From a virus: a stretch of 64,000 nt of DNA. This document shows, piece after piece, positions 13,094 to 57,858 of the stretch; position 1 is the first letter of the stretch; each line of letters starts with the position of its first letter. The position numbers were made by a program, and so were the translations under genes. Under the pieces are notes generated by a model. That model was not told where the DNA came from. It made no database searches and was given only the letters and a program-made list of their open reading frames with translations. Location: positions 7,814-71,813 of IMG/VR virus record IMGVR_UViG_3300046534_001281; one strand, written 5' to 3'.

Positions 13094-13297
13094 ATGTTTA
13101 TTTATATAAAAACCATATTCTTCTTTATATTGTTCCTCATAGCTCTCCCTTGGATCACTACGCGGGACATTATAACAGGGGATATAAAAATAAACTTGGA
13201 AAATAACAACACAGGAGCAAATAGTCTATATCTGACTTGTGTTTTTAGTTTAGTTATTCAGATTATTGTTATTGGTTTCTTAATTCGGTTATACTAG
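13094..13297 (+). CDS. small two-TM membrane protein
   Basis: Two hydrophobic stretches; start follows the Nudix stop. Confidence 0.45.
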   Translation: MFIYIKTIFFFILFLIALPWITTRDIITGDIKINLENNNTGANSLYLTCVFSLVIQIIVIGFLIRLY

Positions 13298-15357
13298 ATT
13301 TCTTCTTCCTCTCCCTCGGGTGTTGGAGGAGCGGGTTCAGGCTCCAATCCTTCAGGCGGAACATCTTCAACAGGCTCTTCACCGAGATCATCTAAAGCAC
13401 CACCCGCATCTCCGAATTCGCCGACATCACCACCCCCACCGACACCCGAAGGTAAAGCAGAGCCACCACCCCCGACAGAACCCCCATCAGCAGGGATACC
13501 CGCTTCTGCTTGAGCATCTGCTCTGAAGTTTGGACCACCTTCTTCGATATTGGTAAGTTCCCATAATTGAGCCGCTTCAATCTTTTTCCACTCATGGTTG
13601 GCTCTGATTTCGTTATCAGTCCAGCCAAGTTCTCTTTTGGCTAAGAACCAGAATGAGAATTGGGGATTTGAAATCAAAGCATTGAAGTTTTCTTGTTTAA
13701 TACTTCTGAGTTGTTGCTCACGAAGTGCAAGAAAATTCGTAGGTAGGCTGAAACGAACTTTGATATCATTTTCTTTTAACTCAAATTGGCTCCAATAACT
13801 CATACCAAGAATCTTTTGGATATCGTCATCCGACTCTCCCGATTCTCTCAACTTCGGGGCATAAACTTGGTAGTGATAATTGCTCTCCACAAGTTTAATA
13901 TGCTCTTCAAATAATTTGGCGGGATCTTCCAAATTAGGTTGACTCAATACCTCTCCTTTTTGGTTTGCCTCCATTATTAGGCTGTTTTGACAAGACTCGT
14001 TGTGTAGCTTTAAACCCTTAAGTTTTAAATGGGTTATCAAACTTTTTTTAATAGCATATGCAAACTTTTTCTGGACAGACTCAATTCTTTCGGCAAACGC
14101 CAATTCCTGCATCGTAATAGTTGTCCCGTCACTTTGTGCTGCATCGGGATTTAGTCTGGTAATAGGGACATGCATCGATGAATAAACTTTTTGGTGGAAG
14201 TGATCTAACATACCGTTAAACCCCGAACCGAAAGCAGTAGAACCCGCTAAACGAGTAACAGAAGCTGCATTCCCATCCGATTTAGTGGGTATGTAAATAT
14301 CCTCGGTAATACCCATTGGGTTGGTTTTCTCTGTAATAACACCAGTTGCATCAACACCCTTATTTTTTTTGTGGGCGTTCATAATATTCTGCATGTAACG
14401 CTCTTCCGAGGGTCCGTCCATGTCTCCTGTAGGGATATTCCATAGAAGCCTCTCAGGGGCATTTACGAGAGCATTAATAACGATTGCATCTTCGATCAAG
14501 GAAAGTTTTCTTTGTGCTTTCTGGCCTTTAAGGATATAAGGTATAACAAATTGACCATCTACATCCCATTCACCAGAGTTACAATAGGTAACCTGACTAC
14601 GTGCCATAGGGATACTATCAAAAGAAGTAGTGGCTTGTTGCTTTCTCCTTTGATTACCTACCATATCATTGGCCGCATGTAAATCCGCATTGTTAGGCTT
14701 CCTTAACCAGAAAGCCTCGATTTCTTGGTTGTAGAAGTTTCTAAAAATTGGATCGACATTTTCTTGCGGAATTGCTTTGAAATCTAAAATACCCAACTCA
14801 GGTTTCTGGATAGAAAAAACGTTTTCAAAAGCCAATTCACCAGTGGTCACAAATTCAGTAAAATACTGCTGACCTTTCATATCAAGTTCGAAGAAGTCAA
14901 CAATCTTTTGTAATTCTTTATTAATAATGTCCACAACCTTATCGTCGTAATCACCCTCAAGCTCAACAACGATAGGTTTTTCTTCATGGGAAGATGCCAA
15001 ACAAGAAATCGCAATTTCATGAACACAGCCTTCAATTTCTTGTTCTTTACCGAGTTCTCTATAATCGGTAATTCTTTGTTGTTTTTGATTATTGAGGTTG
15101 AAACTCATCATCTGGCGAAATGACTTATCAGTCCAAATTGCCATAGTTGTTTTGTTACCGTCCTTACCTTTTAAGAATTCGGGGGTAACGGTGGAAACTG
15201 CCAGCTTATCAGTCTTGCGCGATCTACTGTCACCAACTGCATCAATTATAGAAGCCTTTCTAATTGCCTTATCTAATTCGGCAGTTTTGGAAGGATCATT
15301 CGACTCGTTGTGTTCTGTTTTTTCACCACCGGAGTGTAAATTAAAGAAGTTGGGCAT
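13294..15357 (-). CDS. gp20: portal vertex protein
   Basis: YREL..EIEGCVHEI, KLSLIEDAIVI..APER, MGITEDIYIP, VPITRL, ELAFA; late promoter 15363-15368. Confidence 0.9.
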   Translation of the reverse strand: MPNFFNLHSGGEKTEHNESNDPSKTAELDKAIRKASIIDAVGDSRSRKTDKLAVSTVTPEFLKGKDGNKTTMAIWTDKSFRQMMSFNLNNQKQQRITDYRELGKEQEIEGCVHEIAISCLASSHEEKPIVVELEGDYDDKVVDIINKELQKIVDFFELDMKGQQYFTEFVTTGELAFENVFSIQKPELGILDFKAIPQENVDPIFRNFYNQEIEAFWLRKPNNADLHAANDMVGNQRRKQQATTSFDSIPMARSQVTYCNSGEWDVDGQFVIPYILKGQKAQRKLSLIEDAIVINALVNAPERLLWNIPTGDMDGPSEERYMQNIMNAHKKNKGVDATGVITEKTNPMGITEDIYIPTKSDGNAASVTRLAGSTAFGSGFNGMLDHFHQKVYSSMHVPITRLNPDAAQSDGTTITMQELAFAERIESVQKKFAYAIKKSLITHLKLKGLKLHNESCQNSLIMEANQKGEVLSQPNLEDPAKLFEEHIKLVESNYHYQVYAPKLRESGESDDDIQKILGMSYWSQFELKENDIKVRFSLPTNFLALREQQLRSIKQENFNALISNPQFSFWFLAKRELGWTDNEIRANHEWKKIEAAQLWELTNIEEGGPNFRADAQAEAGIPADGGSVGGGGSALPSGVGGGGDVGEFGDAGGALDDLGEEPVEDVPPEGLEPEPAPPTPEGEEEEI

Positions 15358-15412
15358 ATTGGTAATTATAAGGTTTTTGTGGTTTTTCTACTAATATTGC
15401 ATAATTAACTAT

Positions 15413-16087
15413 ATGGCTGATGCTTATAGATTGCTAATTGACACTCATTCTAATTCTTTTGTTGAACCTATTATGGAACAGGCGAATAAAGATGAACCTA
15501 AAAAAATGTATCTAGAGGGGGTTTTTGCGGAAAGTGGTGTGAAAAATAAAAATGGACGTATTTACGATATCGAAGAGATGCGTAAAGATGTTGAAAGATT
15601 TAATGTAGAGAAAGTTAAACAAGGTCGTTCGTGTAATGAAATGGAACATCCCAGCAATCCGTCGATTAATTATGAAAGAGTTTGTGACAGGACGGTTGAG
15701 CTTAGAATGGAAAGCGACGGAACAGTATACGGTAAAGCTTTAATTTTAGATACGCCTATGGGTCGTTTAGAGAGAAGTTTGGTTGACGGCGGGGTTCGTG
15801 TGGGTAAATCATCTAGAGCATTAGGCCAATTGACGGAGAAAGCTGACGGCAATCACGTAACAGGTATGCATATTGTTTGCCATGATTCTGTAGAAGATCC
15901 TAGCTGCATTAAAGCATTAGTAGATCCTCTAATGGAGAATAGAGAATGGATCATCGGTAGTGACGGAAATTATATGCCAATGGCTTTTGATAAATTGACT
16001 CAAGAACTTTCCACACTACCTAAACACAACAGGGAAGAATATTTCCTAGAATGTTTCCAAAATTTGATGAAGACCATCAAAGGTTAA
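15413..16087 (+). CDS. gp21: prohead core protease
   Basis: YLEGVF..KNKNGRIY, EMEHP, GKA.ILDTPMG, G.SSRALG, D.VEDPS. Confidence 0.93.
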   Translation: MADAYRLLIDTHSNSFVEPIMEQANKDEPKKMYLEGVFAESGVKNKNGRIYDIEEMRKDVERFNVEKVKQGRSCNEMEHPSNPSINYERVCDRTVELRMESDGTVYGKALILDTPMGRLERSLVDGGVRVGKSSRALGQLTEKADGNHVTGMHIVCHDSVEDPSCIKALVDPLMENREWIIGSDGNYMPMAFDKLTQELSTLPKHNREEYFLECFQNLMKTIKG

Positions 16088-16112
16088 AATGGCGCGATAA
16101 CCAATTTTTTAT

Positions 16113-16151
16113 AAAATCCCGCCATAATCGCGCCATTATGACGGGATTTTT
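16113..16151. terminator. bidirectional intrinsic terminator
   Basis: AAAATCCCGCCATAAT...ATTATGACGGGATTTTT between convergent gp21 and gp15. Confidence 0.75.
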
Positions 16152-16158
16152 GGCGCGA

Positions 16159-17238
16159 TTAAAAGACCTTCAAGAATGGTTGGTGGCACTCACTATCAAC
16201 TTCAGTTGCAGTTGATAGTTTAGAACAACCACCGTGTCTGTTGATAACAAGGAAGTCGATATCATTTCCTTCGAACTCTTCCGGTATTTGAACTGCAATG
16301 GTGTTGGTGTTTAATACATCAAACGTTTCAAACATATACCCATCAAACGCAGGACAGTCTTCTGCGAATTTCTCCGAGGCAAAGAACGGGTCATAATTTT
16401 GAGTTACCAGACCATTACCATTCACCTGTAAAGCAAAGATTGCAGTGATATCACTCAGGTTATTACCATATAAAGTTACGTATTTTCCGGCCTTTATACA
16501 GTCGGGAACGATTTCTTGAATTTCTGGTTTAGCGGTAAGTGTGAACGTATCATCTACTTGTTCTGCCACGAAGACGCCACCCTGTTCGCTAATTGTGTTG
16601 ATATTAAATTCAATACAATTCAAAGGACTTACTTCGTTTTGTTCATCGCGAAAAACCCAACCTTCTAATGTTAGATTCATGGTTCCGATATTTCTAGCTT
16701 TCTGAGTAGAAGGTAGATCGGTCGGGAAATCGATATTAACATTACCATCCCACAAAACTTTACTAACAATCTTGTCATTCTCGAAGGGGTGTTTCCAAGA
16801 AACCATAATATCAGGATTGAATGCTGTTGTGTAGTGCGAGATTATTTGATCGAAGTCTGATTTCTTCGTGGTGACAATTTTAACAGTATAAGAAATTTTA
16901 ACAGGTGTTGGGTATTTATATGTTTTATAATTATCTGTCCCGTCCCAACCACCAACAGTTCTTTCTCTATTCTTAGCCGAGTTTTTGTCGAGATCTAAAT
17001 TGAAACCATTCATAAAAACAGAAACAATAGGCAGTTTAACATGGCCTTTAATGTTAATAGTTTCTTCTAGCTGTCTGGTTTTACCTCCAAACTTGATAGG
17101 AACCTTAATTTTCTTTATAATATCGCCCCGACTTCCGTTGGTATTGTAGTCATAGCGATTAATGACAACCCCGTTGAGAGCCGCCATCAAATGTAAAGTT
17201 AGATTAGTGATTTCATCATTAGATGCTTGATGTTCCAT
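16159..17238 (-). CDS. gp15: tail sheath stabilizer/terminator with C-terminal Ig-like extension
   Basis: IKVPIKFG, LPIVS, PTPVKISYTVKI..DFDQIISH..FNP, LTLEGWVF; start re-assigned to ATG 17238. Confidence 0.8.
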   Translation of the reverse strand: MEHQASNDEITNLTLHLMAALNGVVINRYDYNTNGSRGDIIKKIKVPIKFGGKTRQLEETINIKGHVKLPIVSVFMNGFNLDLDKNSAKNRERTVGGWDGTDNYKTYKYPTPVKISYTVKIVTTKKSDFDQIISHYTTAFNPDIMVSWKHPFENDKIVSKVLWDGNVNIDFPTDLPSTQKARNIGTMNLTLEGWVFRDEQNEVSPLNCIEFNINTISEQGGVFVAEQVDDTFTLTAKPEIQEIVPDCIKAGKYVTLYGNNLSDITAIFALQVNGNGLVTQNYDPFFASEKFAEDCPAFDGYMFETFDVLNTNTIAVQIPEEFEGNDIDFLVINRHGGCSKLSTATEVDSECHQPFLKVF

Positions 17239-17243
17239 AACAC

Positions 17244-17249
17244 TAATTA
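17244..17249. promoter_or_regulatory. palindromic late promoter TAATTA shared by divergent gp15 and gp14
   Basis: Exactly 5 nt to a start codon on each strand. Confidence 0.7.
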
Positions 17250-17254
17250 TATTT

Positions 17255-18022
17255 GTGTCAGCATTTAATCCATCAAGAGACAATATCATTACATTCGATC
17301 CGAACGTATTTGATAATAACCAACATATTGCTACGAGCGGTTTGGTTGGTTGTGATGCTAACAACCGAACTCAAGAACTATTTAGAGACTTGGCTAAAGA
17401 AGCCACAAATCTACACGGTCTTTCAGTTATTTATCATAGACAAGATTTTGACCCGAAAAAGGCCCATCCGATTTATGGAGAATCCAATGCTAAATTTTTA
17501 AAGGGCGAGGAAATGCGTGCTTTGGTTGACATCACGGTTGACTCAACAATGTTATCAGCAATTGGTATTGAGGCTTCTAACGAATTAACATTAGAAATTT
17601 CGTTTGAATCATTTGCAAACGCTTTTGGTGTAGGTATTTCACCACAAGCGGGAGACAAATTTGAAATTAAAGATCTTCTTTGTAATAGGCCATCAGGGTT
17701 TACCAAAATCATTTTTCAGGTTGAATCACAGGGTGATTCTGATTTGTTTGAGGTATATAAGCGTTGGCAGATTTTCGGAACCAGAAGTGATTTCTCATAT
17801 ATTGAAGGCGAACCTCAAGAAATTAGCTCAAATGATGTTATCGACTCCTCTTATGCTGGTCCGGTTGATCTTGTTACACACGAACCACTCGTAGATGATC
17901 CACAAGGGCAGTTTAACGCCCAAGAGCGGGATCTTGAGGAGTTAGCTAAGGATCAGTATAAAGAGGAAGACAGCGATGCTTATGGCGGCTATTATGATGA
18001 CGGAATTTATTTTGAAGAGTAA
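17255..18022 (+). CDS. gp14: neck protein
   Basis: EATNLHGLSVIY, IYGE..AKF, GIEASNELTL.IS..SF, PQAGD. Confidence 0.75.
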   Translation: MSAFNPSRDNIITFDPNVFDNNQHIATSGLVGCDANNRTQELFRDLAKEATNLHGLSVIYHRQDFDPKKAHPIYGESNAKFLKGEEMRALVDITVDSTMLSAIGIEASNELTLEISFESFANAFGVGISPQAGDKFEIKDLLCNRPSGFTKIIFQVESQGDSDLFEVYKRWQIFGTRSDFSYIEGEPQEISSNDVIDSSYAGPVDLVTHEPLVDDPQGQFNAQERDLEELAKDQYKEEDSDAYGGYYDDGIYFEE

Positions 18023-18024
18023 AT

Positions 18025-18453
18025 TCATAAATGCTTCGTGTTAATAATTTTAAATAGTTCTTCTTTTAATTCACCATCGATAGGATCATTCTCGATATCC
18101 ATAACACTCTTAGGTATTTCAAAAAACCTCTTATGGATATACTTCTTGTGGTTACTCAAGGCTGAGATGAAAATATTAACCACTGTATCCCACGGTATAT
18201 CTTCGTCATAGAAGTGGTGCCATTTAGTATCATTAACAATGATACTATCTTTGAACTGCCCTATAATATGTTCTGCCGTTATCCTAGCAAAAGCATTTAG
18301 TTGTCGTTTGGCGACATTAAGGACATCGTTTTCGATAAAATTATTATCAACCAAGAACTTTCTTAAAGATCTAGAAAAGATCTTATAGACCTTACTTGAA
18401 CCGACTAGAACAATCATTGATGTGATTGTCACACACAGTTGACCTAGAGTCAA
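18025..18453 (-). CDS. hypothetical protein
   Basis: ORF coupled to the upstream gene. Confidence 0.5.
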   Translation of the reverse strand: MTLGQLCVTITSMIVLVGSSKVYKIFSRSLRKFLVDNNFIENDVLNVAKRQLNAFARITAEHIIGQFKDSIIVNDTKWHHFYDEDIPWDTVVNIFISALSNHKKYIHKRFFEIPKSVMDIENDPIDGELKEELFKIINTKHL

Positions 18454-18938
18454 CCAATAAAACCTGCGGCTAGCTCTTTTATTCTGTCAGGCAGAGTAAA
18501 ATCAATCGAACCCTCTTCGAATTTCTTCTGAAGAGCCTTAGGTGGTTTGTTCTGTCTGAACCCAGCAAATCCATTTAAGAAATCATCACGGAATACAGAA
18601 TGAGAATTCATAATATATAAATTCTCGAAATAGTTCAATTCCCATTGACTCTCAACAATTCTCAATATTTCTCTCTCAACGGGAATACCCAATTCCAACC
18701 ACTTATTAAGTGATTCAGACGAAGAGGTATAATCCCTCCATTTACTATCAACGTAACAGATACGTTTTCTTTTGAAACCTTTGAGTGGTGCTCTCTTAAT
18801 TCTCTTTCGAAACTTCTTAATCCCGATGTAGTAGTTGAGTTTTTCTGTATCGGGATTTTTGATAGTCATCAAATACACAAACCCATGATCGTTTTCACTA
18901 GGTTCAAAATCTTCAGGTATACCTGTCCATGCGTTCAT
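18450..18938 (-). CDS. GIY-YIG family nuclease-like protein
   Basis: GFVYLMT..YYIGIK, WRDYTSSS, REIL, E..N. Confidence 0.75.
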   Translation of the reverse strand: MNAWTGIPEDFEPSENDHGFVYLMTIKNPDTEKLNYYIGIKKFRKRIKRAPLKGFKRKRICYVDSKWRDYTSSSESLNKWLELGIPVEREILRIVESQWELNYFENLYIMNSHSVFRDDFLNGFAGFRQNKPPKALQKKFEEGSIDFTLPDRIKELAAGFIG

Positions 18939-18946
18939 AGATGTAG

Positions 18947-19189
18947 TTAAGATTTCTTTTTCTTTTTACAACCACATGGCTTCTTACATTTACATTTCAC
19001 CTTTTTAGCTCCTGCGGGGATTCTAGCATCACCAGTAGCATAGAAATCATTATTAGTAGGGTCTACCGAATTACCGAACTCACCATTAACGGGTTGTTGC
19101 TCAACTCCGGTGACTTCGGCAGTGAAAACTCCAGAAGATGTCATCTCTTCCAAATTGGCAATAAGTTGCTCGAATTTAGTATTTTCCAT
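18947..19189 (-). CDS. 80-aa late protein mimicking the major capsid N-arm
   Basis: 21/27 aa identical to gp23 residues 98-124; TAATTA-N5-ATG; Lys/Cys tail. Confidence 0.75.
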   Translation of the reverse strand: MENTKFEQLIANLEEMTSSGVFTAEVTGVEQQPVNGEFGNSVDPTNNDFYATGDARIPAGAKKVKCKCKKPCGCKKKKKS

Positions 19190-19240
19190 AAAGTTAATTA
19201 GTAAATTAAAAAGTTAGGTGCGTAGAACATAATTAATAGC

Positions 19241-20131
19241 ATGGAAAAATTATTCGAGAGCCTATTCAGCGACCAAGAGGGTGTGTTTTCTGAATCTACC
19301 CAAAAATCTATTATGGAGGCATTCGATGCCAAAGTATTAGTAGTAGCCGAAGAAAGATCCATTCTCGCAACCGAAGCTATGGATAAGAGCCATACTATCA
19401 TGTTACAGCAACTTGTAGAAAGTCACAATACAAAGCTTAAGACTGAATTGAAATCTCTTGAAGAGTCAATTGATACCGAGCATACAGAAAAGGTTGAAAA
19501 CCTTTTTGTTAAGCTTGATGAAGATCGTGCCCACAAATTACAAGGGGTTAAAGATTACTACGAAGGTCTGCTTAATGAGTCTGTTAAGACCGAGAGTGAT
19601 GTTCTGGTCGAAGCTGTTGATAAGTTTCTTGATACATGGTTGGAAGAAAAAGTTCCTACTGAGTTTCTAGAGGAAGCGGCTAAGAAAGATTATAGCCAAG
19701 ACCTTCTTAAGAAGATTTCAAACCTAGTTGGTATTAATGAGTCGGTTGATTCTGATATCAGAGAAGGTCTTACGGATGCCCGCAATCTTATTGATCGCCA
19801 AAGCAAGATTATCGACGATCTTAAAAAGGATAACTTCCTTCGTGAATCTACTAACAAACTTCCAGTGCTTGAAAAACAGCAAATTATGGAAAGCTTCGAA
19901 GGACACGACTTTGAATTTACTAAAAGGAATTTTAGTTTTCAACAAAAACAAATCTCTAAAGACAAAGAAGCTTCTGATCGTGTAGTTCAGGAACAAACTT
20001 CTAGTCAAAATGTTGATCAATCCCGAGTGCTTAATGAGCAAGTAGGGGTGGATAAAGAAGAGGAACCTAAATCTGTGTTGGCGGGTTGGGCAGAAATGTT
20101 AAATAGCGGTTACGGTGTTTACGGACGTTAA
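19241..20131 (+). CDS. gp22: prohead scaffold protein
   Basis: Helical, acidic; VDKFLDTWLEE; many LxE|S sites; immediately upstream of gp23. Confidence 0.8.
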   Translation: MEKLFESLFSDQEGVFSESTQKSIMEAFDAKVLVVAEERSILATEAMDKSHTIMLQQLVESHNTKLKTELKSLEESIDTEHTEKVENLFVKLDEDRAHKLQGVKDYYEGLLNESVKTESDVLVEAVDKFLDTWLEEKVPTEFLEEAAKKDYSQDLLKKISNLVGINESVDSDIREGLTDARNLIDRQSKIIDDLKKDNFLRESTNKLPVLEKQQIMESFEGHDFEFTKRNFSFQQKQISKDKEASDRVVQEQTSSQNVDQSRVLNEQVGVDKEEEPKSVLAGWAEMLNSGYGVYGR

Positions 20132-20172
20132 TATTTCTTAAAAAATAAACAAACACTACAAAATATAATAAT

Positions 20173-21720
20173 ATGAATGCATATGATATCGACCTCACCT
20201 CGAAGCAACGCGAGGAAAGAGTCCTAAAGACATGGCAACCTCTTCTTGAATCCACAGATACAACTCTTCGTGGTTTCAAGAATACCAAACAGGCTGTCCA
20301 AACCGCTGTTCTCTTAGAGAATCAGTACCGCCACATGGCACAGAACCCAGATACTTATGGTGCTCTCCCTACCCTTAATCAGGTTATCGGAGAATCCCTT
20401 AATACTCAAGGAACTTTCCATGCGTATGGTAATGGTGATGCTGCTTTTGGAGCAACACTTAATCAGCCAGTAAATGGCCAGTATGGTAATACTGTTTCCC
20501 CTACCAATAATGACTTCTATGCAAGAGGTGATGCTCGTCTTCCGAACGTGGTTATGCCAATGATTCGCAGAACGTTCCCAGAACTACTTGCTAATGAGAT
20601 TGTTGGAGTTCAGCCTATGTCTTCCCCCGTTGGAATGGCGTTTGCTCTTCGCTTCCAATATGATTCTGAGTCACTTGCTGATTTCTCTCCTGACGGCGGG
20701 AACACTGCTAACAGTGCCCCTCCTGCTTATAGAACTGCTAGTAATGGTGTTGAAGCATCACACAACCATCTTAACACTGCGTTCACCGGAACATTGAATG
20801 CCGATCTCGACGGTATCGAAGCTGGTGTATCTCAAGCTAACGGTGTTGATACTGATACTGCTGACTTTGCATACCCTGCACAAGATCAAGGTGTCGCTCG
20901 TCTACTCGCAGATGTTGAACTTACTACTGATATTCCTCAGATGAGTCTCACCATCGAAAAGACCGCAGTTGAAGCCGGTTCTCGTAAACTTGCTGTTAAG
21001 TTCTCTTTGGAACTTGAGCAAGATCTTCAGAACATGCACTCAATCTCGGTTGATGATGAAATGACTAACATGATGTCTTATGAATTGCAAGCTGAAATTG
21101 ATCGCGAGCTTCTTATGAGAATTATCAAGTCCACTCTTTCGGCTGGACCAGAACGTGGTTACACAATCTGGAATCCTGCTAATGCAGATGGTCGTTGGTC
21201 CGCAGAACGTTCGGTTAACTTGTGGCAAGCAATTCGTGTTCAATCACGTTTGGTTGGTCTTCGTAACAGACGTGGAGCTGCCAACTTCGCAGTTGTAACT
21301 CCTTATGTTGCGGCTATCCTTGAAACTCTTCCTAACTTCAAAGCTTTCGAGATTGATGCAAACGTTGAGCAAGTATTCGGTAACTCTCGCGCAGGAACTC
21401 TTGGAGCACTTAAGGTGTTCGTTGATACCCGCTCTGAGTCTCAGTATCAGTCCGCTATCCGTGATACCCGTGTTGACTATATCCTTCTTGGTTATAAAGG
21501 CGCAGATACAGGTGATTGTGGTTTGGTTTATCTCCCTTACATCCCAGTTCAGGTGCAACGCACTATGGCTGCGAATGATTTCGGACAGAGAATCGGCCTA
21601 TCCACTAGATATGCTATCGCCGCAAATTTGAACGGGTCTAGCAATTATTACCATATGATAATAATGAAAGGGCTTACTGACGGTATCGATGGAACCGAAA
21701 CTAAGCAATTTGCTTGGTAA
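20173..21720 (+). CDS. gp23: major capsid protein
   Basis: LLENQ, RRTFPELLANEIVGVQPM, SRKL..ELEQDL, EIDRE, LGYKG, YLPYIP, TRY. Confidence 0.97.
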   Translation: MNAYDIDLTSKQREERVLKTWQPLLESTDTTLRGFKNTKQAVQTAVLLENQYRHMAQNPDTYGALPTLNQVIGESLNTQGTFHAYGNGDAAFGATLNQPVNGQYGNTVSPTNNDFYARGDARLPNVVMPMIRRTFPELLANEIVGVQPMSSPVGMAFALRFQYDSESLADFSPDGGNTANSAPPAYRTASNGVEASHNHLNTAFTGTLNADLDGIEAGVSQANGVDTDTADFAYPAQDQGVARLLADVELTTDIPQMSLTIEKTAVEAGSRKLAVKFSLELEQDLQNMHSISVDDEMTNMMSYELQAEIDRELLMRIIKSTLSAGPERGYTIWNPANADGRWSAERSVNLWQAIRVQSRLVGLRNRRGAANFAVVTPYVAAILETLPNFKAFEIDANVEQVFGNSRAGTLGALKVFVDTRSESQYQSAIRDTRVDYILLGYKGADTGDCGLVYLPYIPVQVQRTMAANDFGQRIGLSTRYAIAANLNGSSNYYHMIIMKGLTDGIDGTETKQFAW

Positions 21721-21741
21721 GTTTTAATACCTAAAAATTCC

Positions 21742-21775
21742 AAAGAGCGTAACTTAAATGTTACGCTCTTTTTTT
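21742..21775 (+). terminator. intrinsic terminator after gp23
   Basis: AAAGAGCGTAAC-ttaaat-GTTACGCTCTTTTTTT. Confidence 0.9.
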
Positions 21776-21810
21776 GTTGACAAAGGTAGCAATTTGGTTA
21801 TATTTGTCTT

Positions 21811-22122
21811 GTGAAAAAAGGTGGTAATGAAACATTCATTAAAAAATCAAAACAAAAATTTGGCGATAGATACACCTATGGAGAAACAGTTTACAGTGGC
21901 TCAAAAACCCCTCTAAGCTTTCGTTGTAAGGAACATCAAACTCTGATTACATTAACACCAGAATCCCATTATAGGAGTAAGAACGGTGGTTGTAAAAAAT
22001 GTTTTACTGCTTCTTATAGAAAAGACTCGTCTTATTTCATCGAAAAGTCTAAAAAGCAATTTCCCGATAAATTTGAATATGCAAGGTCACGGGTTCAACC
22101 GAATCTGGGATTGCGGAAATAA
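21811..22122 (+). pseudogene. truncated homing-endonuclease fragment
   Basis: FIKKSKQKFGDRYTY..CKEH..GCKKC module like those at 9283 and 62040, ending with no nuclease domain. Confidence 0.6.
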
Positions 22123-22184
22123 TGTTTGGATTTGGGAAGATAAATCTTGACGTAACTCAGGAATAGTGGTAATATACCTACGTT

Positions 22185-22670
22185 GTGAGAGATTACCAGA
22201 TGAATAACGTGTATGAAGCAGAAGACTTGGCCTTTGAAGGCGAGGGATTTATCAACGAACTCACCAAAGAAGAAACAGAGAAAAAAGTCTGGGATATCCT
22301 TAATTCGGAATTCGTATTCGAATTAATCGAAGAATATAGTTTTGTAAACGAGGTGGACGCAGATTTCACAATAACCCTAAACGATAAACGACACAAATAC
22401 CCTAAAGCAGACGAGACGGGTGTGGTTTTTGCGGAGAACTCAAGATCCAACATTATTGTTTTACATGAACTGGCACACTCGCTGACTATGCATTCGTATT
22501 GTGAATCAACCACCCCTGAAGGTGTAAAATTCACGCCACATGGACCGCATTTTGCTTTCGTTTACCTCAAGCTTGTAGAAGAATTCTTAGAAGAAGAGTA
22601 TCTAAACCTGCTAGCTGCATTCATTTCAACAGATGTAGATTCAACTCCAGAAGAAATCAAAACTAAATAA
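22185..22670 (+). CDS. HEXXH zincin metallopeptidase-like (SprT-like) protein
   Basis: VLHELAH ... HGPHF. Confidence 0.7.
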   Translation: MRDYQMNNVYEAEDLAFEGEGFINELTKEETEKKVWDILNSEFVFELIEEYSFVNEVDADFTITLNDKRHKYPKADETGVVFAENSRSNIIVLHELAHSLTMHSYCESTTPEGVKFTPHGPHFAFVYLKLVEEFLEEEYLNLLAAFISTDVDSTPEEIKTK

Positions 22671-27641: not shown

Positions 27642-28367
27642 ATGCCCAAGTTTAAAGAATTCTACCAAAGCTTTATCAAAGAGACTCCCGACTCTACCAT
27701 AGACTCTGCCGGAAATATAGTAGATTATGATGACGTAGGGGAGACATATACCTTCCTTATAGATAAGAAAACGGGCGAAAGTATTTGGGCCAAAACTATA
27801 CAAGATGGTCTATCGGTGACTCATAACAATTTGTATTCATGGGTTAGTTTTTCCAACACCCACGAAGATTATGAAGAATTTGGTATAGAGGTAATTAGCC
27901 ATTTAGGTAAAGATTCCACCGAACGGCTTAAGATGAATGGTGCGGGTTCCAGCAGAACTGCCGATGGGACTTTTATAGGTGGTAGGATTTTTAAAAGTTC
28001 CAACGTCATCTCGTTTTGGAATACAGAGGTTACCGTTAAAGAGCACTCAAAAATAATTAAAGATTTCATCGAAAATGACATGAAAATGAATTCCGATGAA
28101 ATTAACTACGATCTAATCGATATTGGTGGTAATAAAACTGCATCTACCTTATTCGGGACACAGGATGTTGATGAAGACAGGCTATCGCCAGAAGAGATCA
28201 AGAGATTGATGGAAATTCAACACATAGACCCATTAGCCAAGAAAAAGCTTAGACAGAATGCTGTGTTGGATGACGAAGGCACACCTAGAATGAGAGATTG
28301 GCGACACAACCTCATGAGGAGGTTGAGTGATAGTGTTGAGCATAATACAACAACTAAATTGGTATAA
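27642..28367 (+). CDS. putative internal head protein (CTS-like N-terminus), paralog A
   Basis: TAATTA-N5-ATG; MPKFKEFYQSFIKE; GRIF..ISFWNT. Confidence 0.65.
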   Translation: MPKFKEFYQSFIKETPDSTIDSAGNIVDYDDVGETYTFLIDKKTGESIWAKTIQDGLSVTHNNLYSWVSFSNTHEDYEEFGIEVISHLGKDSTERLKMNGAGSSRTADGTFIGGRIFKSSNVISFWNTEVTVKEHSKIIKDFIENDMKMNSDEINYDLIDIGGNKTASTLFGTQDVDEDRLSPEEIKRLMEIQHIDPLAKKKLRQNAVLDDEGTPRMRDWRHNLMRRLSDSVEHNTTTKLV

Positions 28368-28375
28368 TTAAAGAT

Positions 28376-29044
28376 ATGCCCAAGTTTAAAGAATTCTATA
28401 ATACCTTCCTCAAAGAATCTCCAGACACCTTCAAACATCAAGGTGAATCTATTCATTGGAAACAGGCAGGTAATGGTATAACTTTTACTCTATGGAATGA
28501 CCACGGGGTTTATGGTAATACCTCTGATGGAATTTTCCACGGACATACTACGGAGATTTTCACAGGAGAATTACCACACTCCAATTACCCCGATGCGAAA
28601 TGGTGGAACGGTGAGCCTACAAAGGACGTTAAGGAGGCTTTGAGGCAAATCAGTCACGGCTCTAAGGATGGCCTTTCGATCCACCGTGCGATGGATGGTA
28701 AGGTTCTAGCGGGTAGGGTATTTCCTAAATATAAAACTATTAGTTTTTGGAATACTGCGGAAGAAGGTTTGAGAGATGTCAAGATGTTGGAAAGTTTCTT
28801 GAAAGATATTGGTGTCGAAATGACAGATTATGCATATGATTTTATCAACAAGAAAGACCCGATCCAATTTGGACAAAACGGAGCAGCAACGAATGATGGT
28901 GATTTGTCAAAGGAAGAGATCGATGAGCTTATGCAGGTTCAACACTTTGACCCGATAGCAAAGAAAAAGCTTAGACAGAATGCTGGATACATAAAGTCTA
29001 AGCTCCCCCTTGGTTATAGCGTATTCAGTAGAAATTCAGATTAA
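28376..29044 (+). CDS. putative internal head protein (CTS-like N-terminus), paralog B
   Basis: TAATTA-N5-ATG; MPKFKEFYNTFLKE; GRVF..ISFWNT. Confidence 0.65.
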   Translation: MPKFKEFYNTFLKESPDTFKHQGESIHWKQAGNGITFTLWNDHGVYGNTSDGIFHGHTTEIFTGELPHSNYPDAKWWNGEPTKDVKEALRQISHGSKDGLSIHRAMDGKVLAGRVFPKYKTISFWNTAEEGLRDVKMLESFLKDIGVEMTDYAYDFINKKDPIQFGQNGAATNDGDLSKEEIDELMQVQHFDPIAKKKLRQNAGYIKSKLPLGYSVFSRNSD

Positions 29045-33125: not shown

Positions 33126-33914
33126 ATGAACACAAATAATTTTGACAAAAAAATAAAGAGCATTTTCGAAAATGCTATAGCAACAAGGGACCATACCATC
33201 GAATTGTTTAAAGACACTAGAAGTGGGCGTAAGCTTTCTAAGAAAAAGGCTCAAGAGATTTTTAGTAATACCATTTTAGCTGAATCTGTTTTTAACGTCC
33301 AACTATATGAGGCGGCAGAAACTAGTGATATCCAATTCGAAATCTCAGAACCCGAAAACCCAAATATAGAGTTGTTGGAGTTCTTTGCTGAATCTCTAAG
33401 AACAACTTACCGAGCATTTACACTAGAACAATACACTGTCGAAGAGATGAAGGCTTTTAGAGTATTTGTTGTTTCGGTTGGCGGCGAAATTAAAGAAGCT
33501 GGTTTTGCTTTGAAACCTTATAACGGGGGTGCTCATAGTGAAGTTGTTGCGGTTCATAAAAACCCGTTGTCAGGAAATATTGGTAAAGTTGCCGATGTAT
33601 TCATGAAGGAATCCAAGAGGGAAGGTGGTAAATTTTTAGACCATTTTGATGGGCCACTTTCGAACATTTATGATTTGAATGGATTTAGTGTCTATAAAAT
33701 ATACGAATGGGATGACCAGTATATGCCCGATGGTTGGAACAAGTCAGAAGAAGCAATTAATATTCGTGAACAAAAAACCATTTATAGTCCCTTTGTAGGT
33801 ATTGAAGATGCGGATATTAAGATTGACTACTATAGTTTCAAAGGGTTTTCCTTCGAAAGGAAGTTCGCCCAATACAGAACTGGTGCGGTTGACGTTGTAG
33901 CCCGAAAGATCTAA
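33126..33914 (+). CDS. late GNAT-like protein, putative internal head protein
   Basis: TAATTA-N5-ATG; N-term FDKKIKSIFE; GGKFLDHFDG.LSNIY..NGF..WDDQYMPDGW. Confidence 0.5.
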   Translation: MNTNNFDKKIKSIFENAIATRDHTIELFKDTRSGRKLSKKKAQEIFSNTILAESVFNVQLYEAAETSDIQFEISEPENPNIELLEFFAESLRTTYRAFTLEQYTVEEMKAFRVFVVSVGGEIKEAGFALKPYNGGAHSEVVAVHKNPLSGNIGKVADVFMKESKREGGKFLDHFDGPLSNIYDLNGFSVYKIYEWDDQYMPDGWNKSEEAINIREQKTIYSPFVGIEDADIKIDYYSFKGFSFERKFAQYRTGAVDVVARKI

Positions 33915-49313: not shown

Positions 49314-49973
49314 TTAATTGAGCGGATCGAAAATAACTAAACCTCCGGCGCTGTCAAAACCAAAATTTTCTTCATGGATGTCGTTTTGAGCCACCCCTTT
49401 AATCCCCATTATGGTCTGTCCAAACTCCACCACTTGGGCATATGTCCTACCATACTCCCGAAACAACGCATCTAACTCTTCAATTAAACCCCTATCTTCC
49501 GCAAAACTATCCCCTCTCATGATGTCATGAACAATTTCCTGTAAGTCCATAACTTTAGTGATAGATAATAATTCCCTACCAAATTCATAGTTACGGTCCT
49601 CATCCACCACTAGACGCTCCATAACATATAGTTCAACCTCCTCATCAAGAGAAAGACTTGCGTGTTTTAATATACGAGGGAATAAAGGATTTGATAAACT
49701 CTGCTCCTTGGAAGCAAATGTTTTGAATAGCGGATCATCAAAAGCTAGCTTAACAACATAACCGCCAGATGAACCACTATACACATCAGCAAAACTACCT
49801 CCACCGATCCATTTACCGCCAAGCTTCGTTATATATTCCGAAGCCTTATCCTTCCACTCTGAAGCACTATCAGAACTAAAACGACTCATATCAGTTAAAT
49901 CCTTAATGATCTTATTGGCCAGTGAAAGTCGCTCCTCAATCACAGTTTCGTAATAATCTTTGAATTCACCCAT
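49314..49973 (-). CDS. T7 gp0.7-like protein kinase 1 with CTS-like N-terminus
   Basis: GGGSFADVY, YVVK, YVMERL, DIHEEN, IFDP; TAAATA-N5-ATG at 49973. Confidence 0.8.
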   Translation of the reverse strand: MGEFKDYYETVIEERLSLANKIIKDLTDMSRFSSDSASEWKDKASEYITKLGGKWIGGGSFADVYSGSSGGYVVKLAFDDPLFKTFASKEQSLSNPLFPRILKHASLSLDEEVELYVMERLVVDEDRNYEFGRELLSITKVMDLQEIVHDIMRGDSFAEDRGLIEELDALFREYGRTYAQVVEFGQTIMGIKGVAQNDIHEENFGFDSAGGLVIFDPLN

Positions 49974-53365: not shown

Positions 53366-54106
53366 TTAACCTAATTTGGTTTGCCACTCATTCATTATAT
53401 CGTGAAACTCTTGTGTTGTCTTTGTGGTCCTGTAAGGAATGCTATCAACCTTTAGGCGACTTGTTATCTGTGAAAACTTACGTTCCGACTCAACATATTG
53501 CCAATTCACAATAGCCTCAACAACCTCATAGTTATCAACGACAACCTCATTGTATCCATATGCGGAGTCAATGAAAATGTCATGAGATGAGTAGAACTTG
53601 GATATGTTGTTCAAGAACCATGCCTCTAATGCTTTGATGTATTGATTCACATCCTTGGAACCGTCCACTATACTTTTCAAGTCGGTCTTATCTTCGATAT
53701 CCAGCCTACTATTCTTAAGAATGGTGGTAATAGGTATCCATCGCAAACCACCATTATCGGGTAGTGAACCCATATCACTCCTTCTACCAAAGAGTGCTCG
53801 CCCTTTCAAGATTAAAGCATTGCCCATACTCTGAACACCAAGAAAATTCTTTTCAAAGCTTGTGGTTGTGGATAGTTGTCTCCTTCTGGTGTTCTGACTA
53901 TCCAACACATTTATAAGACCATCCGAATCTGTGAAGTGCGCAACCAACATTGGATGGAACCAACCCAAGGCTTTTGACACAGTAGGGGTAAGCGGTAAAT
54001 TTATAGATTCCTCTTTTGAGAGATCAACAGCAGATCTTTGCCATTTAGCACTAATCTTACTTTTCTCCAAAATAAGGTCATCGTAATACTGCTTAAAGCT
54101 GGTCAT
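53366..54106 (-). CDS. putative internal head protein, ADP-ribosyltransferase-like
   Basis: TATAAATA-N5-ATG; MTSFKQYYDDLILE; AHFT, LSTT, YNEVVV. Confidence 0.5.
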   Translation of the reverse strand: MTSFKQYYDDLILEKSKISAKWQRSAVDLSKEESINLPLTPTVSKALGWFHPMLVAHFTDSDGLINVLDSQNTRRRQLSTTTSFEKNFLGVQSMGNALILKGRALFGRRSDMGSLPDNGGLRWIPITTILKNSRLDIEDKTDLKSIVDGSKDVNQYIKALEAWFLNNISKFYSSHDIFIDSAYGYNEVVVDNYEVVEAIVNWQYVESERKFSQITSRLKVDSIPYRTTKTTQEFHDIMNEWQTKLG

Positions 54107-57165: not shown

Positions 57166-57858
57166 TTAGAAGGATATCGGATCAAAGATAATCAAATGAC
57201 CATCCTTGTTAAAACCAAAGTTTGCACTGTGGACATCAAGGCTATCGGACTTGGTGGTTTTCCGTAATATCTCAACAAATTCCATGAGCTGTTCCAAGGT
57301 TCTGCCGTGCTGTCTCAGAACATTGTCAAAATTGCTCAATTGCTCCTCCGATAATATGTCTCTTAGGACAGCATCAATGATATCAATCAAAGTGAAATCA
57401 TCACTACGCATTTCTTTTCCCCACACCGATTGAGACGCCTTTCGTAGGAACTGCATATTAGATGATGCAGTGCTTTTAAAGTCAACCTTTAAACGTTCTA
57501 AAACATAGATGTCAATCATTAAATATTCGCTGTGCTCCAAAACAATATGTTTCTCTATCTTAGGAAACAGAGGATTGTCATATTTACCCATGTTCAAAAA
57601 GAACTGACGACCCGTGCGATCATTAACAGCAACCTTAACAACATAACCACCGCTGTCACTACCATACACATTAGCAAAATTACCCTTACCCAAATTCTCA
57701 CCACCGTGATCTTCCATTATATCGCTAACAACGGCATCAACATCATCTTTGGTTAACTCCTTGTCTGATTGCAAACTATCGCGAATCTCCGTAGCAATAG
57801 CGCCAGCAATAGATCTGCGTTCTTCTAATATTTGTTGGTAGTAATCTTTAAACCTCAT
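57166..57858 (-). CDS. T7 gp0.7-like protein kinase 4 with CTS-like N-terminus
   Basis: GKGNFANVY, YVVK, YVLERL, DVHSAN, IFDPISF; TAAATA-N5-ATG. Confidence 0.8.
   Translation of the reverse strand: MRFKDYYQQILEERRSIAGAIATEIRDSLQSDKELTKDDVDAVVSDIMEDHGGENLGKGNFANVYGSDSGGYVVKVAVNDRTGRQFFLNMGKYDNPLFPKIEKHIVLEHSEYLMIDIYVLERLKVDFKSTASSNMQFLRKASQSVWGKEMRSDDFTLIDIIDAVLRDILSEEQLSNFDNVLRQHGRTLEQLMEFVEILRKTTKSDSLDVHSANFGFNKDGHLIIFDPISF

Follow-up and report, generated by a model that had tools for sequence, protein, structure and literature searches.

Here, we found that a short gene next to the head genes of an uncultured T4-like virus encodes a protein of 80 amino acids (the mini-protein) in which a capsid-targeting-like leader is followed by a copy of the N-terminal segment of gp23, the major capsid protein, and by a basic tail. 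Judged from these sequence features, and with a little better than even confidence, the mini-protein is a late, capsid-targeted internal head protein that is processed by gp21 and whose basic tail binds DNA. The window, i.e., the whole stretch of 64,000 nucleotides that was analyzed, comes from an IMG/VR viral record of 71.8 kb with a completeness rating of 32%. In the explanation that we favor, the leader, and perhaps also the gp23-like segment, would dock the mini-protein inside the prohead, on its acidic scaffolding core, and gp21 would cut off the leader behind Glu15. The resulting basic product of about 65 residues would bind DNA and remain in the head, as basic internal proteins do in T4, and it may exit with the DNA at infection.

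The mini-protein gene lies at 18947..19189 on the (-) strand, starts with ATG and encodes 80 amino acids before the stop codon, as described in an earlier note on this DNA; the exact protein sequence is also present as P0001 in a protein collection. As claimed in that note, it is transcribed divergently from gp23 and from the gp22-like ORF (19241..20131). The 21 identities over 27 positions that had been reported with gp23 residues 98-124 (nt 20464-20544) were reproduced for mini-protein residues 32-58. In addition, BLASTP aligned mini-protein residues 14-58 with gp23 residues 74-124 (26/51 identities, E=1e-15), so the likeness extends further than was seen before and well past chance. It starts exactly at the predicted protease sites of both proteins, which are L-E-E/M in the mini-protein and I-G-E/S in gp23. 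The gp23-like segment of the mini-protein, which is supported by BLASTP and hhalign, covers residues 16-58 (19016..19144, (-) strand), is rich in small residues and has motif 1 at its end, with NDFYATGDARIP as its core motif. The copied segment in gp23, residues 74-124 (20392..20544, (+) strand), runs from the predicted cleavage site to the conserved start of the N-arm. When window gp23 is aligned with T4 gp23, residues 128-150 fall opposite T4 residues 96-118 and the copied segment falls opposite T4 residues ~61-92, which places it in the stretch that runs from the cleavage site of T4 gp23 (Glu65) to the N-arm, i.e., at the N-fist, which is given as residues 66-91 of T4 gp23 (PMC7136217).

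A decaying duplicate had been raised as an objection, and the gene does not behave as one: over the 27-codon core, synonymous sites between the mini-protein gene and its own gp23 gene are saturated (pS 0.72) and dN is 0.15. The same core compared between the mini-proteins of the window and of L002, a relative described below, gives a dN of 0.19 and a dS of 0.91. The mini-protein did not match the Pfam Gp23 family (PF07068), and the part of gp23 that aligns with it by hhalign is only the N-terminal region, residues 74-136. Membership in the Gp23 capsid family was ruled out, as the mini-protein is without the HK97-fold body. The mini-protein is predicted to be disordered (low-confidence ESM Atlas model, pLDDT 0.31), and a search of the ESM Atlas returned unnamed viral clusters only, with scores of at most 0.85.

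The leader comprises residues 1-15 (MENTKFEQLIANLEE; 19145..19189, (-) strand) and ends in an L-x-E site of the gp21 type. Its description as a leader like a capsid-targeting sequence ending in LEE (L13-E14-E15) was borne out. In T4, leaders of 10-19 residues send internal proteins into the core and gp21 cleaves following L/I-x-E, and varied basic proteins with capsid-targeting leaders are described for T4-related phages (PMC9026906). The leaders of the mini-protein family are 8-17 residues long, and the terminal [LI]xE is found in 22 of 24 members; the two members without it are L041 and L049, and the start of L049 may be miscalled. Family leaders resemble the leader of T4 IPII/IPIII (MKTYQEFIAE, translated from the T4 record), a likeness that spans about 10-15 residues only, and an example is the L012 leader (MKSFKQYILE). 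The leader pattern is present in 7 of the 106 ORFs of the window, and shuffled N-termini averaged 0.14 matches and never exceeded 2, with 0 of 500 shuffles reaching 7; this comparison is indicative only, since the pattern was composed after the mini-protein and T4 leaders had been viewed.

Behind the gp23-like segment, residues 59-80 (18950..19015, (-) strand) form a basic tail with 11 K, no D or E and a CxC..CxC arrangement, and the tail KKVKCKCKKPCGCKKKKKS is present as the earlier note stated. The K/R-rich character of the tail is common to all relatives, and the four-Cys CxC..CxC pattern is confined to the window protein and P0002. Six window ORFs of 219-262 aa also have capsid-targeting-like leaders ending in [LI]xE, namely 27642-28367(+), 28376-29044(+), 33126-33914(+), 49314-49973(-), 53366-54106(-) and 57166-57858(-), with MPKFKEFYQSFIKE at 27642 and MTSFKQYYDDLILE at 54106(-) as example leaders. 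From their sequences, these six ORFs are candidate internal head proteins. Two of them, at 49314 and 57166, gave weak matches (4.8e-5 and 1.6e-9, respectively) to a PHROG whose annotation is 'protein kinase and inhibitor of host transcription'.

The presumed processing enzyme, a gp21-type prohead protease, is encoded at 15413..16087 on the (+) strand (Pfam Peptidase_S77, 3e-18; PHROG head maturation protease, 5.9e-46). Pfam and PHROG searches also identified the portal (13294-15357, (-)), a gp15-like gene (16159-17364, (-)) and a neck protein gene (17255-18022, (+)). The gp22-like scaffold gene on the (+) strand matched no Pfam family and no informative PHROG family; it was assigned from its position, size, acidity (pI 4.7) and [LI]xE sites (n=14), and its product is 49% identical to that of the ORF in the same position of L002. 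The major capsid protein gp23 (515 aa; 20173..21720, (+) strand; Pfam Gp23, 2.3e-77) is only ~30% identical to any gp23 of a GenBank phage, and all 2584 of the 2584 matching records are below 60%. Region 17000-22200 had zero matches to GenBank phages at the DNA level (blastn), which together with the divergence of gp23 points to a deep-branching, uncultured T4-like lineage. Across 13294-18022, the strands alternate (portal -, gp21 +, gp15-like -, neck protein +) and the T4 order is co-linear, and the 5′-ends of the gp15-like and neck ORFs overlap by ~110 nt. Directly 3′ of gp23, a 103-aa ORF (21811-22122(+)) matched endonuclease/HNH PHROGs (1.1e-8) and is preceded by a sigma-70-like TTGACA...TATATT; in the T4 record, segD is located downstream of gene 23.

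The mini-protein gene had been credited with its own late promoter, and this was upheld in part. A lineage-specific late-type motif, CTAATTA, is found at -12 from the ATG (19195..19201, (-) strand), but the T4 late box TATAAATA is absent near the gene; the window has six matches to this box, zero of them near the mini-protein gene, a number that was equaled in 38 of 100 shuffles. The genes for the portal, gp21 and gp22, along with about nine other ORFs, likewise have [AC]TAATTA at exactly -12, and HTAATTA has just 48 occurrences on both strands of the window. Outside the window, CTAATTA is found at -12 from the mini-protein gene of G001 and ATAATTA at -15 from that of L002, and in the other clade the exact TATAAATA is present upstream of the mini-protein genes of L021 and L028. 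Taken together, these promoter motifs suggest that the mini-protein gene may be expressed late.

Fixed-distance motifs are found at other genes of the window as well. A total of 13 ORFs have [AC]TAATTA at -12, for example 15357(-), 15413, 19241, 27642, 28376 and 33126, and ~14 ORFs have TTGAC[AT] at -38 from the ATG, for example 7840, 26540, 30127, 36886 and 39709. No Shine-Dalgarno sequence was evident by eye at these ORFs. Together, these features suggest that the late promoter is specific to the lineage and that the mRNAs are leaderless or nearly so. Upstream of gp22, L002 (7049) has the T4-type TATAAATA and the window (19241) has ATAATTA, so the late motif seems variable inside this clade.

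The possibility that the mini-protein is absent from relatives had also been raised, and relatives were found in at least 11 metagenomic T4-like lineages (about 11 when delimited by sequence grouping), with small members of 58-104 aa. The protein P0002 (81 aa) is 68% identical to the window mini-protein and keeps the CxC..CxC tail, and the only close IMG/VR relative is L002, with a 77-aa ORF in the same place beside gp22/gp23. A profile search of 1.84 billion representatives returned 18 proteins at E<=1e-3, including small ones and five longer ones. Scanning IMG/VR with a degenerate motif yielded 38 loci, which comprise 20 gp23 N-termini that share the motif and 18 ORFs with the plan of the mini-protein (one 282 aa long, the other 17 in the range of 73-88 aa), and four further mini-proteins were found in the records G001, G002, G003 and G005, of which G003 is 227 kb and rated complete. 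When a profile of 19 mini-proteins was compared with a profile of 17 gp23 sequences, hhalign gave a probability of 97.8% (E 8.9e-13) over gp23 residues 74-136. In this alignment, the basic stretch is inserted after motif 1 (DFYAxGDARLP) and ahead of motif 2 (PMIRRTFP), the latter of which probably lies at the start of the Gol region of T4 gp23. The pattern D-x-Y-A-x-G-D-x-R-x-P is invariant across the 17 aligned gp23 sequences and is retained in most mini-proteins, and several mini-proteins retain motif 2 downstream of the basic stretch (for example ...VPLIRRTFPGM in G005). The mini-proteins of G002 and G003 have lost motif 1 and retained motif 2, which indicates that motif 1 is dispensable for some members.

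Five longer members (P0006, P0017, P0020, P0021 and L028 509-1357) have unrelated C-terminal domains of 80-200 aa past the basic stretch. These domains may be cargo fused to a common N-terminal module, and their presence is compatible with the N-terminal part being an encapsidation module. Against GenBank phages (tblastn), the window mini-protein gave one spurious match (E=0.8) and the L013 and L012 mini-proteins gave none. Pfam and PHROGs gave no family for the window mini-protein, P0006, P0017, P0020, P0021, L028 and the ORFs flanking the L013 mini-protein gene, the sole exceptions being a sub-threshold DUF5661 match in P0020 and DUF6267 in a distant ORF. In the titles, abstract openings and passages of the literature that were covered, no small protein copying the N-terminus of a capsid protein was found described.

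Co-variation of the mini-protein with its cognate gp23 had been proposed as a check, and the comparison was made over the 24 variable residues ahead of motif 1 in seven genome pairs. The window mini-protein scored 77, 89 and 72 against gp23 of its own clade and 2-18 against mini-proteins of the other clade; likewise, window-clade mini-proteins scored 63-89 against window-clade gp23 and 2-21 against other-clade mini-proteins. The G006 mini-protein scored 60 against its own gp23, and the G001 mini-protein has diverged. The cognate pairing was equaled by 122 of 5040 permutations, and the cognate gp23 was ranked first in 2 of the 7 pairs. In G006 and G008, the mini-protein is identical and the gp23 bodies are 89% identical, but the gp23 segments differ. 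These results show that the mini-protein tracks gp23 at the level of the clade, and strict one-to-one pairing was not seen in the seven pairs. The tracking might result from co-evolution of the two proteins on a common partner, from gene conversion now and then, or from an origin that was repeated. In L052 and L053 (the gp23 of G006 and G008), the segment from the cleavage site to motif 1 is strongly divergent, which suggests that this part of the capsid protein evolves rapidly or recombines.

The earlier note, whose observation of the mini-protein gene itself was confirmed, had overlooked a constant neighbor. A gene for a SegE-like GIY-YIG protein of 162 aa (18450..18938, (-) strand; Pfam PF19835, 1.3e-14) lies 8 nt downstream of the mini-protein gene; it has no promoter motif of its own, and the mini-protein gene upstream bears one. 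In 23 of 23 loci (the 18 mini-protein loci of the IMG/VR scan plus the window, G001, G002, G003 and G005), the SegE-like gene adjoins the mini-protein gene. In 22 of them it is co-directional and directly downstream, and in G001 the pair is arranged tail-to-tail. In G004, the SegE-like gene is present with no adjacent mini-protein gene. Across 10 sequences including T4 SegE, F19, Y21, Y36, G38, E104, N121 and R127 are invariant, and the GIY, YIG, Glu and Asn positions of the catalytic domain are conserved in the SegE-like copies. The alignment of the nine phage copies (136-163 aa) stops about 85 residues short of the T4 SegE C-terminus; these copies have the catalytic domain only and not the C-terminal DNA-binding domain.

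The T4 seg genes are described as mobile and as served by upstream promoters, and T4 segE sits between inh and uvsW (T4 record; PMC2988022). The pair of mini-protein and SegE-like genes lies beside gp22 in the window clade and elsewhere beside UvsY/UvsW-like genes, which were recognized by eye from their N-termini. T4 Inh, the neighbor of segE, was considered as a relative of the mini-protein and rejected, since it is acidic and by eye unrelated. The distribution of the SegE-like gene (18450-18938(-) in the window, and L054, L055, L056 and L057) is neither sporadic nor multi-copy: it is present once in each of 5 of 5 related records and in the same neighborhood across lineages. Between the window and L002, the SegE-like proteins are 61% identical, compared to 69% for gp23 and 55% for the neck protein. 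The SegE-like gene thus looks like a resident gene and not a sporadic mobile element, and by analogy the plainest reading is that it would be an old resident endonuclease gene that borrows the late-type promoter of the mini-protein gene.

Before expansion, the N-terminal region of T4 gp23 is described as being inside the prohead, probably on the core (PMC9546572), and as moving outward only upon expansion (PMC9546572, PMC9958956). The gp23 copy in an internal head protein could be a second core-docking element, a competitor of gp23 or a latch that binds the lattice. Since encapsidation requires the leader alone, the reading of the mini-protein as an internal head protein leaves the retention of the gp23 copy and its clade-level tracking unexplained, and the constant SegE-like neighbor is also unexplained by it.

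Other explanations were weighed against the same evidence. It is unlikely that the cleaved segment acts in trans as an N-fist, filling gp23 N-fist sites on the shell as a cement or as a filler of symmetry-broken sites with its tail touching DNA. The copied segment is positionally equal to the T4 N-fist plus the start of the N-arm, the T4 N-fist touches four subunits (PMC9958956), and a common, clade-specific binding surface would yield the observed tracking between mini-protein and gp23. However, the ordered N-fist of T4 sits on the outside of the capsid, and capsid-targeted proteins are found in its interior (PMC9958956, PMC9546572), and no precedent is known for a polylysine tail that faces outward or for a peptide that passes through the shell. 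Tracking is also seen at the clade level only, as the differing gp23 segments of G006 and G008 illustrate. The portal-facing N-fists of T4 are disordered, their partner being missing (PMC7136217), which means that N-fists are in surplus there and not in shortage, and no vacant acceptor sites are known. In addition, each of the 5 records covered, the complete G003 among them, has a single Gp23-family gene, which leaves no N-fist-less penton or vertex paralogue that would keep sites vacant; a gp24-type vertex paralogue without an N-fist was sought and none was present among the 5 records. With portal-facing N-fists unpaired and a single Gp23-family gene, the earlier proposal of an N-arm supplied in trans at the portal vertex gained no support. 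It is quite unlikely that the mini-protein is a transient assembly factor, which would enter the core, compete with the gp23 N-terminus for the scaffold, tune curvature or size as proposed for gp67/gp68, and then be cleaved and expelled. The leader, the cleavage site and the late-type promoter apply equally to such a factor, head-length determination in T4 is linked to the contacts that the N-terminal region of gp23 makes with the gp22 core (PMC9546572), and T4 gp67, described as a likely size determinant, also has 80 aa, a helical N-terminus and a highly charged tail (PMC9026906). Against it stand the absence of any similarity to gp67 (no alignment at E<=100), the tail being basic and not acidic, and the single [LI]xE site, compared to T4 core proteins that are cut into several fragments (PMC9026906); a polycationic product of 65 residues would also be expected to stay associated with DNA.

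Two further explanations place the mini-protein outside head assembly. A decoy that titrates a host defense sensor of the gp23 N-terminal region, which the earlier note had offered as an alternative, is very unlikely. Capsid-triggered defenses exist: the Gol segment of T4 gp23, which lies within the first quarter of the protein, activates Lit via EF-Tu (PMC3014915). Some mini-proteins retain motif 2, and the mini-protein follows the gp23 of its clade. Nevertheless, the window mini-protein is without motif 2, the uncultured lineage has no known defense partner, and no sequence feature demands a decoy, for which no evidence was found and which would leave the leader, the protease site and the basic tail unaccounted for. 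Also very unlikely is the view that the ORF is a functionless passenger or relic of a mobile cassette of the SegE-type homing endonuclease that captured a 5′ fragment of gp23. The constant adjacency to the SegE-like gene, co-directional and immediately downstream in all loci but one, the occurrence of the pair in two genomic contexts (gp22 and UvsY/UvsW), and the mobility of T4 seg genes together with their use of upstream promoters (PMC2988022) fit such a cassette. In contrast, the mini-protein is under purifying selection and its plan is conserved across at least 11 lineages, and the promoter belongs to the mini-protein gene and not to the seg-like gene. The SegE-like gene is single-copy in all five records and its divergence matches that of its neighbors (61% identity vs 69% for gp23), which argues for vertical inheritance and not for sporadic spread. 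The tail-to-tail pair in G001 and the seg gene without a mini-protein in G004 also do not fit a passenger.

A further possibility, which we hold only tentatively, is that the mini-protein is a separate copy of the N-terminal latch of gp23 and co-evolves with the gp23 of its clade. After entry into the prohead and trimming by gp21, it would bind the surface for the gp23 N-terminus on the shell or scaffold and tether the polycationic tail and, in the longer members, a cargo domain to the capsid lattice, and the SegE-like nuclease could be a functional partner rather than a selfish element. If true, this would be a new way to anchor DNA-condensing or injected cargo via mimicry of the capsid protein. 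Virus assembly is studied with the T4 head as a model, and foreign proteins are already loaded into heads by means of T4 capsid-targeting leaders. The mini-protein is a natural and widespread small protein that combines a capsid-targeting-like leader with a copy of the capsid N-terminus, which suggests that the N-terminal segment of gp23 may be able to bind the scaffold or neighboring subunits in a portable manner and that evolution has reused this function. The mini-protein offers a simple handle for finding the binding partner of the gp23 N-terminus in the prohead, and it identifies a large, uncultured lineage of T4-like phages with several candidate internal proteins and unusual fixed-distance promoters.

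Compared with known systems, and returning to the reading as an internal head protein, the mini-protein may be classed as a variant among T4-type internal head proteins by its working likeness to them and by sharing part of their defining features. Like T4 IPI, IPII and IPIII, it is small and basic and has a short, similar leader ending in L/I-x-E, and its setting is also like theirs, with a putatively late gene, a gp21 protease and a gp22-type core. Unlike those of IPI, IPII and IPIII, the mature part of the mini-protein combines a gp23 N-terminal paralogue with a polylysine tail of low complexity, is predicted to be disordered and is dissimilar to theirs. These T4 proteins are described as 'not highly conserved' (PMC9026906), whereas the mini-protein is widely conserved across lineages. 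T4 gp67, a prohead core protein with a proposed role in head shape, is like the mini-protein in its 80 aa and its charged, low-complexity tail; its helical N-terminal part has L/I-x-E sites, and gp67 resembles residues 51-78 of gp23 weakly and without significance (E=0.6). In contrast to the mini-protein, gp67 has an acidic tail and its gene lies between genes 20 and 68, not beside seg; homology between the two was rejected, as BLASTP gave no alignment and the mini-protein matched no PHROG or Pfam family. With the N-fist/N-arm of T4-type gp23, the mini-protein shares a homologous segment that starts at the maturation cleavage site, but it is without the entire HK97-fold body and has a basic insertion or tail instead. 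The neighbor gene is like T4 segE in its Pfam SegE_GIY-YIG domain and in lying near uvsW/uvsY in most relatives. Unlike T4 SegE, its product of 136-163 aa is without the C-terminal part of ~85 residues, and the gene is single-copy, syntenic and, in mini-protein loci, always beside the mini-protein gene.
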